Shown: positions 2,461 through 37,895 of the stretch, piece after piece
Layout of the letters: every line of letters begins with the position of its first letter
Numbering within the stretch: position 1 is the stretch's first letter
DNA from: an uncultured Muribaculaceae bacterium
GTDB lineage: Bacteria > Bacillota_I > Bacilli_A > RF39 > UBA660
Assembly (NCBI GenBank): GCA_964629735.1
Contig: CAZVQX010000001.1
Span: 86,984 to 150,983, forward strand
Direction of reading: 5' to 3'
DNA length: 64,000 nt
Program-made: the position numbers and the translations under genes
Notes under the pieces: generated by a model
The model's database searches: none
The model's input: the letters and a program-made list of their open reading frames with translations, nothing else
Told to the model about the DNA's origin: nothing

Positions 2461-2537
2461 GGGTGATTAGCTCAGTTGGTTAGAGCACCTGCCTTACAAG
2501 CAGGGGGTCGTAGGTTCGAGTCCTACATCGCCCACCA
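2461..2537 (+). tRNA. tRNA-Val (anticodon TAC)
   Basis: Cloverleaf folded by hand. Acceptor GGGTGAT/ATCGCCC, anticodon loop CTTACAA, encoded CCA. Confidence 0.85.
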
Positions 2538-2538
2538 T

Positions 2539-2614
<76 letters not shown>

Positions 2615-2616
2615 GT

Positions 2617-2700
2617 GGAGGGATAGCGAAGTGGTCAAACGCGGCAGACTGTAAATCTGTTCCTTCGGGTTCGATGGTTCAAATCCATCTCCCTCCACCA
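2617..2700 (+). tRNA. tRNA-Tyr (GTA), class II with long variable arm
   Basis: Acceptor GGAGGGA/TCCCTCC, anticodon loop ACTGTAAA, variable arm TTCCTTCGGGTTC, CCA. Confidence 0.85.
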
Positions 2701-2714
2701 TTAATATTTGACCT

Positions 2715-2789
2715 TGCCTCGTAGCCAAGCGGTAAGGCACCACACTTTGACTGTGGCATGCGCTAGTTCGAATCTAGCCGAGGCAGCCA
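2715..2789 (+). tRNA. tRNA-Gln (TTG)
   Basis: U1-A72 start typical of Gln, D-arm TAGCCAAGCGGTAAGGC, anticodon loop CTTTGAC, CCA. Confidence 0.85.
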
Positions 2790-2797
2790 TTTTATAT

Positions 2798-2873
2798 GTT
2801 CCGTTAGCTCAGTAGGTAGAGCATTTGACTTTTAATCAAAGGGTCACAGGTTCAAATCCTGTACGGGACACCA
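2798..2873 (+). tRNA. tRNA-Lys (TTT)
   Basis: Acceptor GTTCCGT/ACGGGAC, anticodon loop CTTTTAA, CCA. Confidence 0.85.
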
Positions 2874-2878
2874 CTTAT

Positions 2879-2968
2879 GCCTGAGTGGCGGAATAGGTAG
2901 ACGCACAGGACTTAAAATCCTGCGAGACGCAAAATCTCGTGCCGGTTCAATTCCGGCCTTAGGCACCA
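2879..2968 (+). tRNA. tRNA-Leu (TAA), class II
   Basis: Acceptor GCCTGAG/CTTAGGC, anticodon loop CTTAAAA, long variable arm, CCA. Confidence 0.85.
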
Positions 2969-2988
2969 TTTATAATTAATTTTTAGTT

Positions 2989-3079
2989 GGAGAAATACCC
3001 AAGTCTGGCTGAAGGGGTCGGTCTTGAAAACCGAGAGGTCGGAAACGACGCGGGGGTTCAAATCCCTCTTTCTCCGCCA
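2989..3079 (+). tRNA. tRNA-Ser (TGA), class II
   Basis: Acceptor GGAGAAA/TTTCTCC, anticodon loop CTTGAAA, long variable arm, CCA. Confidence 0.85.
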
Positions 3080-3093
3080 TAAAAATTTAACAT

Positions 3094-3170
<77 letters not shown>

Positions 3171-3173
3171 TAA

Positions 3174-3249
3174 GGTCCCGTGGTGTAGCGGTTAACATGT
3201 CTGCCTGTCACGCAGAAGATCGCGAGTTCAATTCTCGTCGGGACCGCCA
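3174..3249 (+). tRNA. tRNA-Asp (GTC)
   Basis: Acceptor GGTCCCG/CGGGACC, anticodon loop CTGTCAC, CCA. Confidence 0.85.
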
Positions 3250-3254
3250 TTGTT

Positions 3255-3330
<76 letters not shown>

Positions 3331-3345
3331 TTAATATTTGAATAT

Positions 3346-3422
3346 GCGCCCGTAGATCAATTGGATAGATCGTTTGACTACGGATCAAAAGGCTATGGGT
3401 TCGACTCCTATCGGGCGCGCCA
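3346..3422 (+). tRNA. tRNA-Arg (ACG)
   Basis: Acceptor GCGCCCG/CGGGCGC, anticodon loop CTACGGA, CCA. Confidence 0.85.
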
Positions 3423-3424
3423 TT

Positions 3425-3501
3425 CGGGAAATAGCACAACTTGGTAGTGCACTTGGTTTGGGACCAAGGGGTTGCAGGTTCAAATCCTGTTTTCCCGACC
3501 A
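3425..3501 (+). tRNA. tRNA-Pro (TGG)
   Basis: C1-G72, acceptor CGGGAAA/TTTCCCG, anticodon loop TTTGGGA, CCA. Confidence 0.85.
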
Positions 3502-3506
3502 TCTTT

Positions 3507-3583
3507 GGGGAATTAGCTCAGTTGGCTAGAGTACCTGTTTTGCACGCAGGGGGTCAAGGGTTCAAGTCCCTTATTCTCCACCA
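3507..3583 (+). tRNA. tRNA-Ala (TGC)
   Basis: G3:U70 identity pair, anticodon loop TTTGCAC, CCA. Confidence 0.85.
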
Positions 3584-3647: not shown

Positions 3648-3929
3648 ATGAGTAACAATTCATTTTTAGCTAGTAAAATTCAGAGTTTGCAAATGACGAT
3701 TTCTGGATTAAGAGATAATATTAAAACTGTTAATAATACTTTGAAAGATAATACTAAAAATAGTAATGATATTCAACTTGTTTTATTAGAAGTTTTGAAA
3801 TCAAACAAGAGAATTGAAGAAGCCATCTTAGAACAAAATGAACTTATAAAAGTTCAATTAGGATTACCAAGTAAATATGATGGTAAATATGAATATAATA
3901 AAGTTTTAAGAAAAAAAGGTACTTTTTAA
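3648..3929 (+). CDS. Hypothetical 93-aa protein (cysteine-free, helical, Asn/Lys-rich)
   Basis: ORF with a GGGGG RBS just upstream. No recognisable family. Confidence 0.3.
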   Translation: MSNNSFLASKIQSLQMTISGLRDNIKTVNNTLKDNTKNSNDIQLVLLEVLKSNKRIEEAILEQNELIKVQLGLPSKYDGKYEYNKVLRKKGTF

Positions 3930-4032
3930 CAAACGGCACTCACATGATAGTTACTAACATAAAATGTTAAAATTATTATATGGGTGCTTTTTTTAAAATA
4001 ATTTATTTAGAATAAACCAAATGAGGTGTGTT

Positions 4033-4731
4033 ATGATTAACTTTATAGTTTGTGATGATAATGAGTTGATTCTTAAACAAGTAAATGAAATTATAGATAA
4101 TGTGATGATGAAAAATAAGTTATCATATAAAAAACATTTTTTTACCGATTATGATAATGATTTTTTGAAATTGATGAGGTCTAAAATGTCTTGTAAAGTA
4201 TATATACTTGATATTGAGACACCAACCTCTTCAGGCATCGACGTCGCGCGTATGATTCGAGAACGTGATTTTTCTAGTGTCATTATATTTTTAACCTCAC
4301 ATCATGAATTGGGTTATACTATTTTAAAGGGTGAATTTTTGTTTTTATCTTTTATAAATAAATATGATAATTATAAAGAAAAGTTAAAGTCTTCAATAGA
4401 AAAAAGTTTAGAAGTATTAAATAAGAGAGAAATAATTAGATTTGAGGATCGTGGAATTTTATATACAATTCCAATAAACGATATTTTATATATAACAAGA
4501 GATACAGTTGAAAGAAAATTAATAATTAAAACTGATAATGTGAAATATGTAATAAGTAAAACATTAACTGAAATGTTAGATATTTTGGGTAGTGATTTTA
4601 AACAGACACATCGTTCATGTATAATCAACACAAAAAGAGTGTCGGTTCTTAGTTATTCTAAAAAATTCATTTTATTTGATACTGGCCTTAAAATTGATTT
4701 AATAAGTTCAAAATACAGGGAAAGGGTCTAA
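4033..4731 (+). CDS. agrA: LytTR-family response regulator (AgrA/ComE-like)
   Basis: N-terminal receiver domain (ILDIETPTSSGIDVARMI, phospho-acceptor Asp) and C-terminal LytTR DNA-binding domain (FEDRGILYTIPINDILYI...QTHRSCIINTKRV). Start at the ATG at 4033 after the GAGGTG RBS. Confidence 0.8.
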   Translation: MINFIVCDDNELILKQVNEIIDNVMMKNKLSYKKHFFTDYDNDFLKLMRSKMSCKVYILDIETPTSSGIDVARMIRERDFSSVIIFLTSHHELGYTILKGEFLFLSFINKYDNYKEKLKSSIEKSLEVLNKREIIRFEDRGILYTIPINDILYITRDTVERKLIIKTDNVKYVISKTLTEMLDILGSDFKQTHRSCIINTKRVSVLSYSKKFILFDTGLKIDLISSKYRERV

Positions 4732-4735
4732 TGAT

Positions 4736-6025
4736 ATGGAGTTTGTAGTATCTGGAATAATAACAACTTTATCTTTTTTTTATGTTCAATCAAAATTAAT
4801 TAATGAGAAAATAAATTATAAGTCTATAATATTTTATATTGTTTTATTTTTTAGTACTGCTACCTTATTATTCACTTATGATTTAACTCAACATTATATT
4901 AAAATTTTATTAAATTTCACTATTTTAGTAATAAGTTGTTATATATTGTATAGAAAAAGCATTGTAAAAACATTTCTTGTGACTTTATTGACATTTATAT
5001 TATTATTTTTGGCTGAATTTTTATTTGTAATAGGTTTATCAATAACTTTAAATATAAGTATAGAACAACTTGATTTTAATTTAGGTAGTACAATTATTCC
5101 AAATATAATTATAAGTTTAATTTTAATATTAATTGTAAATATTAGAGGTGTGTTTTTAGCCTTGAAGAATATAATCAATAATTTTACAAACTATGAAAAT
5201 AAAACTTTTTTTTTAACGGGTATATATATTGTCTTTTTATATTCCCTTTTCTTTTATAGTCTTTATTTTAATGTGCACATGAAGATTTTTGTTTTGTTAT
5301 CTTTGTTTTTAATTATATTTTTAACAATATTATTATTAAAAATTTTTTTGGAAAAAAAGTATAACAAATCTTTAGAATCAGAATATAAAATGTTGATTGA
5401 TAATCTAAGTGAGTATGAAAAATTTTTGGAAGATTATCGACTGAAAAATCATGAAAATAACAATGATTTAATAATTTTACGAGAAATGGTCATCAATAAT
5501 AATGAAGCAGTAAAATATATAGATAATATATTAAATATTAAACCAAATGAAGATAAAGAATTATTATATAAGACCAAAAGAATTCCAACGGGCGGTTTGC
5601 AAGGATTATTTTACCAGAAATTATTAACTATAAAAACAAAATCGATACATTATCATTTGGAAGTTAGTAAAAAAATTCAACCCGAACAATTTAAAAAATT
5701 AGATAATTTTTCAAAACAAACTATTTGCAAAATTTCTGGTATATTGTTAGATAATGCAATTGAGGCAGTTGAAAATTTAGAACAAAAATATATAAGTTTA
5801 TATATTTATAATGAAAATGATTACTTTGTTATTTCAATTTCAAATAACTTCACTAACTGTATAGAAATAGACAAAATTGATAGCAAAACTTATTCTAGTA
5901 AAGGTAATAATCGTGGTTATGGTCTTAGTCTAGTTAAAAATATTGTTTCAAAGAATAGAAATATAAAACTTGAACGCGAATTTATTGGTGATATATTTAA
6001 ACAAAAAATAAAGTTAAAAATGTAG
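4736..6025 (+). CDS. agrC: AgrC/ComD-type (HPK10) membrane histidine kinase
   Basis: Six or seven N-terminal transmembrane helices. C-terminal GHKL ATPase with N-box (LLDNAIEA) and G-box (KGNNRGYGLSLVKNIV). Immediately downstream of the LytTR regulator. Confidence 0.75.
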   Translation: MEFVVSGIITTLSFFYVQSKLINEKINYKSIIFYIVLFFSTATLLFTYDLTQHYIKILLNFTILVISCYILYRKSIVKTFLVTLLTFILLFLAEFLFVIGLSITLNISIEQLDFNLGSTIIPNIIISLILILIVNIRGVFLALKNIINNFTNYENKTFFLTGIYIVFLYSLFFYSLYFNVHMKIFVLLSLFLIIFLTILLLKIFLEKKYNKSLESEYKMLIDNLSEYEKFLEDYRLKNHENNNDLIILREMVINNNEAVKYIDNILNIKPNEDKELLYKTKRIPTGGLQGLFYQKLLTIKTKSIHYHLEVSKKIQPEQFKKLDNFSKQTICKISGILLDNAIEAVENLEQKYISLYIYNENDYFVISISNNFTNCIEIDKIDSKTYSSKGNNRGYGLSLVKNIVSKNRNIKLEREFIGDIFKQKIKLKM

Positions 6026-6042
6026 ATTCCTCTACATTTTTT
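6021..6042. terminator. Bidirectional terminator shared by convergent agrC and agrD
   Basis: TGTAGA-TTCC-TCTACA hairpin flanked by T-runs on both strands. The agrC stop codon lies inside the stem. Confidence 0.55.
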
Positions 6043-6046
6043 AATA

Positions 6047-6169
6047 CTACTTTATTAAACTTTTTGGTGTTTTAGGTTCATCCATCCATAAAATTATACA
6101 AGCTGTACTAATTGAATTTGCAACTATTAATCCTAAATTAGCAATTAAGGCTGTTATAATTTTTTTCAT
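6047..6169 (-). CDS. agrD: AgrD-like autoinducing-peptide precursor (40 aa: MKKIITALIANLGLIVANSISTACIILWMDEPKTPKSLIK)
   Basis: Hand-translated small ORF absent from the ORF track. Perfect AGGAGG RBS 6 nt upstream. Amphipathic N-terminal leader, a single Cys in a hydrophobic core (ACIILWM), and an acidic/Pro tail (DEPKTPKSL) resembling the Listeria YEPKSP and S. aureus DEVEVPKEL recognition tails. Lies directly downstream of agrB. Confidence 0.6.
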   Translation of the reverse strand: MKKIITALIANLGLIVANSISTACIILWMDEPKTPKSLIK

Positions 6170-6782
6170 CTAATCCCTCCTTTTCTTTAATATATTTTTT
6201 ATAATTATTATAAGGTAGTTTAAAAAGGCTATAAACAAAAGGTGATATTAAAAGGCTTTGTATAAATAATGAGAAAATTATACAATTTGTAATAAAATTA
6301 TTTGTAATAAAAATAGTAGTAAAAGATAATATAATAACAATAATAGTTGAAGAGAATTTATATAATTTTCTTCTTTTTTTATTAATTATTGGTTTTTTAT
6401 ATGTATCTGCAGGTGAATTTTTAAAAAATAAAATAATAAATATTATATTCAAAAAAATTGTGCTAAAAATATCAAATACAATAAAGTTAGCAATGTATGA
6501 AAAGGTTAGAAAAACAAATGCAGATACAATAAGACAAATATGACTTTTGGTGGCATGTAGTCCAAATGAAAACATTCTAATAAAATTATAAAAAAGTAAT
6601 AAAATAATTAATTCTTCTAAAATACCTATAAAATAAGCAATACTAAAAATGATAAATGTTTTAGTAATTAATAAATAAATCCCCTCTAAACCATATTTTA
6701 TCTGTGATAATTTTTCATTATTATAATCTGGGTGATATGTTTTTATATATGAAATTAAAAAACTTAAAAACTTATCTTTCAT
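6138..6782 (-). CDS. agrB: AgrB-family membrane endopeptidase (AIP propeptide processing/export)
   Basis: Polytopic membrane protein containing FIRMFSFGLHATKSHICLIVSA, aligning to S. aureus AgrB [21 protein letters not shown] with the catalytic His and Cys conserved. Its 3' end overlaps the agrD start by 32 nt. Confidence 0.75.
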   Translation of the reverse strand: MKDKFLSFLISYIKTYHPDYNNEKLSQIKYGLEGIYLLITKTFIIFSIAYFIGILEELIILLLFYNFIRMFSFGLHATKSHICLIVSAFVFLTFSYIANFIVFDIFSTIFLNIIFIILFFKNSPADTYKKPIINKKRRKLYKFSSTIIVIILSFTTIFITNNFITNCIIFSLFIQSLLISPFVYSLFKLPYNNYKKYIKEKEGLDEKNYNSLNC

Positions 6783-6866
6783 GTGTACTCCTTTATACTA
6801 TATATATTATAAAATATTTAGGGACTATTTTATAATATAAGTTTAAAATTGGTGTTTTTGGTCTTA

Positions 6867-6900
6867 AGTAACAAATAATTACCTACCAGTTAACAAATAA
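6867..6900 (-). promoter_or_regulatory. Candidate LytTR (AgrA) binding site: two 12-bp direct repeats TTATTTGTTAAC / TTATTTGTTACT spaced 22 bp start-to-start, upstream of agrB
   Basis: Direct repeats seen on the minus-strand reading, about 85-118 nt upstream of the agrB start. LytTR regulators bind imperfect direct repeats spaced about 21-22 bp. Confidence 0.35.
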
Positions 6901-7077
6901 AGATTATTTAAACATCGTTAAACTTTATTAAGCTAAAATCAATAATATGTTTAAAAAATGGTGTAAAATTTTAGTTGTTGTATTATATTGTCGGATTTTA
7001 ATGGTCTGATTTTATTGAAAGTGAGATGTATAAGTTGTATATTAGAGATGTGATAAGAATAGAAGGGAGCGCTGTTT

Positions 7078-7290
7078 GTGAGAGGTAAGGTTAAATGGTT
7101 TAACAATGATAAAGGCTTTGGATTTATTGAATACAGAGATGGGGAAGATATTTTTGTTCATTATTCAGCTATTTTGTCACCAGGTTATAAAACCTTGGTA
7201 GAAGGACAGTATGTTGAATTTGAATTAATTCGTACCGATAAAGGTCTTCAAGCCAAAAATGTTATTGAAATAAAAACTGCTTTAGTATAG
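7078..7290 (+). CDS. cspA: Cold-shock protein, CspA family
   Basis: [15 protein letters not shown]...DIFVHYSAI contains the RNP1/RNP2 motifs. GTG start preceded by GAAGGGAG. Confidence 0.9.
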
Positions 7291-37412: not shown

Positions 37413-37895
37413 ATGAATCGCGTTTCACTTGTAGGAAGATTGACAGCTAAACCAGAATTACGAATGACTAATAATCAAATACCGTTTACAAGATTTAGTT
37501 TAGCGGTAAATCGTAATTTTTCTAATTCTCAAGGTGAGAGAGGTGCTGATTTTATTAATATCATTGCTTGGCGTAAACAAGCAGAAGTAATTTGTAATTA
37601 CTTAGATAAAGGAAGTTTAATTTCAGTAGGTGGACGAATTCAAACTGGTTCATATGATGATAAAGACGGTAAACGCGTTTATTCATATGATGTTGTTGTT
37701 GATGATTTTCAATTTTTAGAGACTAAAGCTCAAGCTCAAGCGAGAATGAATAATACTGACAATAATAATTTTGGGCCAAGCCCATATGACTATCAAACAA
37801 ACAATTATATGGGATATGATTTAAATAAGACTGAGGATCCATATAGTAGTATGGGTGATATTGTAACGTTGAATGATAATGACGATATAGATTAA
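37413..37895 (+). CDS. ssb: Single-stranded DNA-binding protein
   Basis: [13 protein letters not shown]-fold and an acidic C-terminal tail DDDIPF-like (NDNDDID). Confidence 0.95.

Follow-up and report, generated by a model that had tools for sequence, protein, structure and literature searches.

The agr quorum-sensing genes of Staphylococcus aureus form a single agrBDCA operon, and the ring of the signal peptide ends directly before the Asp-Glu of the precursor tail (PMC12312760). The response regulator AgrA binds tandem direct repeats upstream of its target promoters, and these repeats lie in back-to-back pairs before the divergent promoters P2 and P3 (PMC4227749), one of which faces RNAIII. 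In clostridia separate agrBD and agrCA units have been described (PMC12312760, PMC10301443). In C. acetobutylicum agrBD stands apart from the two-component unit and there is no RNAIII (PMC10301443, PMC12312760); the two-component genes have the order agrCA, with the gene for the LanM-like effector CA_C0082 directly downstream (PMC10301443). Here we describe an agr-type locus found between positions 4033 and 6782 of a 64,000-nt stretch of contig CAZVQX010000001.1, from an uncultured bacterium. We refer to the whole stretch as the window, and all coordinates below are positions in it. On the comparisons presented here we put at about 0.88 the probability that the locus encodes a functional agr-type system based on an autoinducing peptide (AIP), and that this is the standard version carried by a large clade of uncultured gut bacteria with small genomes.

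The proteins of the locus resemble those of S. aureus in kind: an AgrB peptidase with a His/Cys pair, a three-part AgrD, a polytopic AgrC of the HPK10 type and an AgrA made of receiver and LytTR domains. The back-to-back pairs of direct repeats before divergent promoters (PMC4227749) also have a candidate counterpart here. The locus differs from S. aureus in that it is divided into agrB-agrD and agrA-agrC, which converge, where S. aureus has one operon, in that the predicted ring has six residues instead of five, and in that the putative divergent promoter faces a gene of the cspA family and not RNAIII. With C. acetobutylicum it shares the separation of agrBD from the two-component unit, the lack of RNAIII (PMC10301443, PMC12312760) and an AgrD in which Cys and five residues are followed by [Y/D]EPxxP. 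In contrast to the agrCA order of C. acetobutylicum (PMC10301443), the order here is agrA-agrC, convergent on agrBD, and AgrD has a total length of 37–41 aa against 53–59 aa, with a much shorter leader. No LanM-like gene homologous to CA_C0082 was found among the ten neighbouring open reading frames (ORFs) that were scanned.

Gene content, products and layout of the locus

On the plus strand agrA (4033–4731) encodes a response regulator of 232 aa with receiver and LytTR DNA-binding domains. It is followed in operon order, after 4 nt, by agrC (4736–6025), which encodes a polytopic sensor histidine kinase of 429 aa. On the minus strand, and pointing towards them, agrB (6138–6782) encodes an AgrD-processing membrane cysteine endopeptidase/cyclase of 214 aa and agrD (6047–6169) the AIP precursor of 40 aa; agrB and agrD overlap by 32 nt. 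A preliminary description made from the DNA letters had interpreted the locus as a full set of agr-type genes that includes a genuine AgrD. All four ORFs were present at the coordinates given there, and the four products matched their families. The mechanically delimited ORF of agrA begins at 4021. The start at 4033 is preceded by a GAGGTG ribosome-binding site (RBS), and the 232-aa AgrA that begins there is the form on public record.

AgrB matched PF04647 with E = 4.6e-30 and 104.8 bits (gathering score 23), and the predicted catalytic pair, H76 and C83 (FGLHATKS...C), was invariant in 24 homologues. A search returned 747 AgrB homologues, the best of them 50–56% identical, and those with a named source all came from metagenome-assembled genomes (MAGs) labelled Bacilli or Firmicutes. 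AgrA showed matches to the Pfam families Response_reg (PF00072) and LytTR (PF04397) and aligned lengthwise to the NCBIfam AgrA model with a score far below the equivalog cut-off; residues D9, D60, T88 and K110 and the LytTR residues H193/R194 were retained by 95% or more of 60 homologues. AgrC matched PF14501 (HATPase_c_5, GHKL; E = 1.6e-14), aligned over its full length with the model of S. aureus AgrC (50 bits; equivalog cut-off 500) and contained six transmembrane-like segments within residues 30–203. About 60 homologues were compared, and 95% or more of them share its H-box H239/E240/N243, N340 and G394/G396. The domain matches and the conserved phosphorylation residues bear out the assignment of a LytTR response regulator and an AgrC-like kinase. 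Median identity to the window proteins was 31% for AgrC and 49–50% for AgrB and AgrA, and the sensor half of AgrC was the least conserved part of the locus, at 0.17–0.25 compared with 0.36–0.44 for the kinase half. This divergence of the sensor half fits a receptor and a peptide that diversify together.

The 40-aa AgrD, MKKIITALIANLGLIVANSISTACIILWMDEPKTPKSLIK, consists of a leader (residues 1–23), Cys24, a variable core IILWM (25–29) and a recognition tail DEPKTPKSLIK (30–40), so that the three-part architecture of leader, Cys core and acidic Pro-containing tail claimed for it is upheld by the translation and by the family alignment described below. The AGGAGG RBS reported for agrD was found as AGGAGGG at 6175–6181 on the minus strand, inside the 3' end of agrB and 5 nt upstream of the ATG, and GGAGG motifs likewise precede agrD in related loci. 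The product passes the NCBIfam model TIGR04223 (28 bits, cut-off 19; E = 1.7e-6). Similar results were obtained with 74 distinct AgrDs from relatives, all 74 of which matched TIGR04223, while only 18 matched PF05931, a Pfam family built on staphylococcal sequences, at E ≤ 0.01. The check by profiles that the preliminary description had proposed was split, AgrB passing PF04647 and AgrD passing TIGR04223 without reaching the gathering score of PF05931.

A genome scan yielded 254 related loci, of which 80 (L001–L080) were kept for the comparisons reported here. A homologous small ORF was found directly downstream of agrB in 72 of the 80, and the contigs of the other eight stop about 260 nt or less from agrB; the small ORF is therefore conserved wherever the contig does not end. 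When the 40-aa AgrD alone was searched against the protein collection, it matched only itself, reflecting the word-index limit of the search, and for that reason a profile of the 74 sequences was used, which detected 1479 AgrD clusters in the protein database. Together, the TIGR04223 match, the strong RBS and the counterparts in 72 loci indicate that the 40-codon gene is real. The statement that it is unannotated and missed by gene callers did not hold. The gene passes TIGR04223, the public protein collection contains the identical 40-aa protein with both NCBI and Logan as sources, and agrD is called as a gene beside agrB on two independent contigs, L081 and L082. Samples that yielded contigs of the species include SRR20818732 and SRR8925797. 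Relatives carry the NCBI name 'cyclic lactone autoinducer peptide' (P0148, from Candidatus Faecisoma merdavium; P0154, from a Bacilli MAG). The identification is correct but largely ordinary, the peptide gene being already recognised by current NCBI models.

The two units meet at a hairpin, AAAAATGTAGA-TTCC-TCTACATTTTT (6016–6041, read on both strands), positioned between the stop codons of agrC (6023–6025) and agrD (6047–6049). Folding of the two strands gave minimum free energies of -10.9 and -12.0 kcal/mol, with z-scores of -4.67 and -4.16. A hairpin made of an A-run, a stem and a T-run was found at z < -2 in 60 of 61 related loci, with stem sequences that differ, and the median distance between the stop codons of agrD and agrC in related loci was 35 nt. 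A simple terminator scan did not report the hairpin, because it has fewer than three G-C pairs. The single bidirectional terminator proposed earlier is thus well supported as a structure (z of -4.7 and -4.2; 60 of 61 relatives), and we regard it as a probable intrinsic terminator in both directions.

The convergent layout, cspA< >agrB>agrD> <agrC<agrA, was not restricted to the window. In 67 of the 80 related loci agrC lay on the opposite strand just downstream of agrD; 12 of the other 13 are contigs ending within 800 nt, and agrC on the same strand as agrBD was found in none of the 80. Only one related locus with enough flank (L046, 2.9 kb) has agrBD without agrCA, and its first pair of the boxes described below is among the weakest, with a score of about 7. 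The convergent arrangement of agrAC and agrBD and its difference from the agrBDCA order of S. aureus, with two units, an agrA-agrC order and no single operon, were therefore as reported. Its presentation as distinctive needs to be tempered, since the layout is real but is the rule across a clade of hundreds of gut MAG species, and the split into two units, which had also been noted as a departure from S. aureus, has precedents in the clostridial agrBD and agrCA units cited above. Our literature search, which was limited in coverage, returned no description of agr for RF39, Tenericutes, Mollicutes or Acholeplasma and none of agr genes arranged 'convergently'.

The 80 loci come from MAGs labelled Bacilli, Tenericutes, Mollicutes, 'Acholeplasma sp. 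CAG:878', Candidatus Faecisoma and Candidatus Pelethosoma, and include circular genomes of 1.20 and 1.26 Mb. Candidatus Faecisoma corresponds to the GTDB genus CAG-878 in the order RF39 (PMC8035907), and NCBI places it under Mycoplasmatota incertae sedis. The SecA protein of the window is 72–76% identical to SecA of these genomes, and the window organism probably belongs to their lineage. The same compact agr system is near-universal in a clade of uncultured gut bacteria with genomes of about 1.2 Mb, some of which belong to RF39.

Box pairs between cspA and agrB

Divergent from agrB lies a cold-shock gene of the cspA family (7078–7290, plus strand; PF00313, E = 2.2e-26). A CspA homologue was present in 77 of the 80 related loci and was directly divergent from agrB in 69, across a spacer of 195–380 nt; in the window the spacer occupies 6783–7077. 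The spacer contains two back-to-back pairs of an 11-nt box with the consensus TTTCAGACAAA, read in the direction of the adjacent gene, and with a periodicity of 21 bp. Pairs were scored with a position weight matrix (PWM) for which the 95th percentile of shuffled sequences was 11.0 and the clade median 16.6.

Pair 2 (CTTAAGACCAAA ... TTTTAAACTTAT; 6837–6868, minus strand) points towards agrB and is a candidate AgrA site through which agrBD would be autoinduced. In the window it has a dimer score of 12.5 and a start-to-start spacing of 20 nt, and it is located at -87 from the agrB ATG. In the clade, pair 2 occurs at -97 to -62 and scores above the 95th percentile of zone-limited shuffles in 63% of the loci; 21 of the 29 relatives scoring above 11 share the same 20-nt position bin. 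The putative -10 element of the agrBD promoter, TATAAT (6806–6811, minus strand), is 25 nt downstream of the proximal box, and in relatives a -10-like element about 25 nt after pair 2 is followed by the RBS and the ATG. The centre of the proximal box would lie about 40–45 nt from the inferred transcription start, compared with about -60 in S. aureus.

Pair 1 (TTTAAACATCG ... TTAAGCTAAAA; 6905–6938, plus strand) points towards cspA. It is degenerate in the window, where it scores 7–8 and falls below the shuffle percentile of 11.0. The pair 1 of relatives has the form TTTCAGACAAA-N10-TTTCAGACAAA, falls within one shared 40-nt zone in 63 of 70 loci and exceeds the shuffle percentile in 89%. A candidate -10 element towards cspA, TG-TAAAAT (6964–6969, plus strand), lies 25 nt after pair 1, and an extended -10-like 'tGnTAAAAT' is conserved about 24 nt after it in relatives. 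We assigned pair 1 to cspA because of this extended -10 element and because the cspA start codon is 51–67 nt from the boxes in 12 loci. A 'facing' model, in which pair 1 would be an element of the agrBD promoter with a long 5' untranslated region, was rejected after alignment in the opposite direction.

From the position and the form of the boxes we infer that AgrA is the protein that binds them. Phosphorylated AgrA would then bind the tandem boxes, with their spacing of 20–21 bp, and activate agrBD and, divergently, cspA. As a tentative proposal, to which we give somewhat less than even odds, the whole clade may use a bidirectional agr control like that of P2 and P3, in which the 'P3' side drives cspA, and possibly hpf and secA, with no RNAIII involved; a protein of the CspA family would then be a direct output of quorum sensing, and the AIP cores of the clade would form a large natural panel of mutually specific signals. 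In that case CspA would be a candidate, open to experimental test, for a protein that takes over the effector role of RNAIII. Neither RNAIII nor another regulatory RNA was found in the window, where an Rfam scan at the gathering threshold gave tRNAs only.

Instead of AgrA, another regulator might bind the boxes, such as one dedicated to cspA, and cspA would then be outside the agr regulon. We consider this possible, if rather doubtful. The better-conserved pair does face cspA, a gene that has its own sigma-70-like promoter further downstream (TTGAAA-17-TATATT, 7015–7043, plus strand, downstream of pair 1), and the box TTTCAGACAAA is only loosely like the staphylococcal ACAGTTAAG. However, agrBD is preceded on the opposite strand by the same motif, again with a period of 21 bp and a -10 element about 25 nt away, the locus encodes no LytTR regulator besides AgrA, the back-to-back pairs at divergent promoters reproduce the P2/P3 geometry of S. 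aureus (PMC4227749), and cspA adjoins agr in the great majority of loci.

Boxes were found upstream of agrA in only 3–4 of 57 loci, and AgrC and AgrA are for this reason probably outside the feedback loop. With AgrA as the regulator of the spacer, agrA and agrC would be expressed independently as a unit of their own. In most relatives this unit has no boxes; it runs towards agrBD, and a single hairpin would terminate both. Positive feedback would act on signal synthesis only, and the conserved layout likewise suggests that feedback covers the signal and not the receptor.

The interval that separates pair 2 from pair 1 holds two perfect direct copies of a 10-nt sequence, TAACAAATAA x2, with a spacing of 22 (6869–6900). 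Its sequence resembles the box with one base missing. No other match occurs in the window, but with three mismatches allowed one or more matches turned up in 36 of 100 shuffles. We rejected it as an AgrA box; it is not conserved in relatives and it sits between the conserved pairs. When the whole window was scanned with the PWM for additional pairs, only weak and unconvincing hits came up, the best with a score of 16.9 at 37768–37801. Because the clade PWM gives low scores to the sites of the window itself, such a scan cannot define a regulon here. The cspA leader contains a tandem 14-nt repeat, ATTGTCGGATTTTA / ATGGTCTGATTTTA (6987–7014), just upstream of the promoter at 7015–7043. A similar doubled 'TGTCGAA...TGTCGAAtTTTTG' motif was observed in L007, L010, L020, L026, L027, L035 and L079, and the repeat could be the site of a second regulator or an RNA element.

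The predicted signal peptide and its ring

We aligned 75 AgrD sequences, those of the related loci and that of the window. All 75 consist of a leader, G-S-Q-A in the consensus, a Cys (Ser once), five hydrophobic residues and a tail of the form D-E-P-E-C-P-K-S-L-I-K-stop. The flanks are nearly invariant while the 75 sequences contain 73 distinct cores. The residues D30, E31, P35, L38 and K40 are invariant and C24 nearly so; after the Cys come five hypervariable, hydrophobic residues, and D30 is precisely where the invariant part starts. Similar results were obtained with the best 120 of the 1479 clusters, all of which have Cys, five residues and DE, with 104 distinct cores among them.

The same spacing is found in AgrD of C. 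acetobutylicum, GKCVLVTLYEPKMPEEL, in which Cys and five residues are followed by YEP (PMC10301443 supplement), and the AIP of this species is listed as [CVLVTL] (PMC12312760). Because invariance starts at D30, and because the distance from the Cys to [D/Y]EP equals that of C. acetobutylicum, the signal encoded in the window is most likely a six-residue ring, [CIILWM], as predicted from the alignment. The membrane protein AgrB, with His76 and Cys83, would remove the C-terminal tail DEPKTPKSLIK from the 40-aa AgrD and close a thiolactone between Cys24 and the new C-terminus, and a second protease would remove the leader. Polytopic AgrC would then sense the peptide and, through His239, phosphorylate AgrA at Asp60.

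The preliminary description had left a choice between five and six residues. Either is possible, and the family alignment favours six. With a five-residue ring, [CIILW], the agr system would be the same and AgrB would cut between W28 and M29, leaving Met29 in the discarded tail. The calculated [M+H]+ is 629.348 for cyclic CIILW and 760.388 for cyclic CIILWM, or 831.426 and 932.473 for the larger ring with an Ala or a Thr-Ala tail. Rings of five residues are by far the commonest in characterised agr systems (PMC12312760), and ring size is not read from sequence with certainty. Against this, all five positions after the Cys are variable and invariance holds from D30 on, the rings of S. aureus and C. 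acetobutylicum end right before [D/Y]E(P/V), and a variable first tail residue beside an invariant recognition motif would be unusual, which makes the smaller ring unlikely. Six-residue rings are uncommon but known, and the C. acetobutylicum group is predicted to make them (PMC10301443). In R. cellulolyticum a six-residue product, C-WFWSY, was detected for Rc-AIP1 (PMC8251862), and like it the product predicted here from the sequence starts with Cys.

The conserved N-terminal flank (G)S(Q)A-C argues that an exocyclic tail is absent or very short and invariant, and by the same token the mature peptide with the ring [CIILWM] probably has no such tail or only a very short, invariant one. AIPs without a tail undergo an S-to-N acyl shift (PMC8251862; PMC11297923), as shown for Rc-AIP1. 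By analogy, a thiolactone that lacks the tail should rearrange to the head-to-tail lactam. The xxA-C junction found here fits a tail of no residues or one, and in this the peptide would be like Rc-AIP1 and the AIP of Listeria monocytogenes, tail-less peptides that give homodetic cyclopeptides.

The very diverse AIPs predicted to have six residues would provide material for studies of receptor–peptide specificity. If the prediction is true, the 120 clusters, with their 104 or more distinct six-residue cores, would constitute a natural panel, perhaps of cross-inhibiting signals, in one gut lineage, and the signalling peptides could become handles for cultivating or manipulating these uncultured organisms.

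Several relatives depart from the common AgrD pattern. A second Cys occurs in the tail of 55 of the 75 AgrDs (DEPECP), in the part that AgrB would remove, at a position where the window has Thr (DEPKTP). Two agrD genes with different cores were found in L020 (4658–4780 and 4997–5119; CVIIFL and CWIWYM) and in L029 (4576–4698 and 5042–5164), and doubled agrD or tandem double agrC genes occur among L011, L020, L022, L029, L062 and L080. Such duplications suggest diversification of signal and receptor within a genome. In L019 (4626–4745) an in-frame stop interrupts the AgrD core (CFT*WW), which makes a pseudogene likely, and in L066 (4584–4706) the ring Cys is replaced by Ser (ASLVVIF), which would yield a lactone or an inactive peptide.

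Remaining alternatives and chromosomal neighbourhood

Four observations weigh against a functional agr system of the clade's standard type. The window AgrD scores 17.5 bits with PF05931, below the gathering score of 22.7; it has ISTA before the Cys where the clade consensus is GSQA; AgrA and AgrC remain far below the staphylococcal equivalog cut-offs, as expected of distant orthologues; and both box pairs of the window are degenerate, scoring 7–8 and 12.5 against the clade median of 16.6. The last point leaves autoinduction less well supported here than in relatives.

The low box scores and the atypical ISTA flank, together with an atypical C-terminal extension of AgrB that overlaps agrD by 32 nt, could also reflect a decaying or rewired remnant, with its proteins intact and its autoinduction lost through degeneration of the AgrA boxes. 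We judge this to be very improbable, since the four ORFs are intact with all catalytic residues present, identical proteins occur on contigs from independent samples and on either side a -10 element is placed 25 nt from its boxes, which is also the arrangement in the clade; moreover, the DNA specificity of AgrA may have drifted along with its sites. That the 40-codon ORF is a chance open frame beside an orphan agrB, as the frequency of short ORFs at about 20% G+C might suggest (the first 12 kb contain 62 with 30 aa or more), is refuted for practical purposes by the comparative data, namely the TIGR04223 match at E = 1.7e-6, the strong RBS, the 1479 database clusters and the presence, in 72 of 80 loci, of an ORF conserved in position and length and in its Cys and tail.

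The functional agr-type locus that we favour sits in a core chromosomal neighbourhood. One flank is formed by cspA-hpf-secA, in which hpf and secA run in the direction of cspA. No second agr locus and no further AgrD-like ORF were found in the 64-kb window. Upstream of the agr region, on the plus strand, is an array of 13 tRNA genes (2461–3580), which accounts for a local G+C peak of 37–40% in DNA that otherwise has 20–23%.

A 93-codon ORF at 3648–3929, directly upstream of agrA, matched no Pfam family, and tblastn gave no match to it in any of the 80 related loci. The same ORF is present on the contigs L081 and L082, which belong to the same species. After it, about 45 nt before the agrA ATG, there is a possible stem, GCACTCA...TGGGTGC, with a run of seven T.

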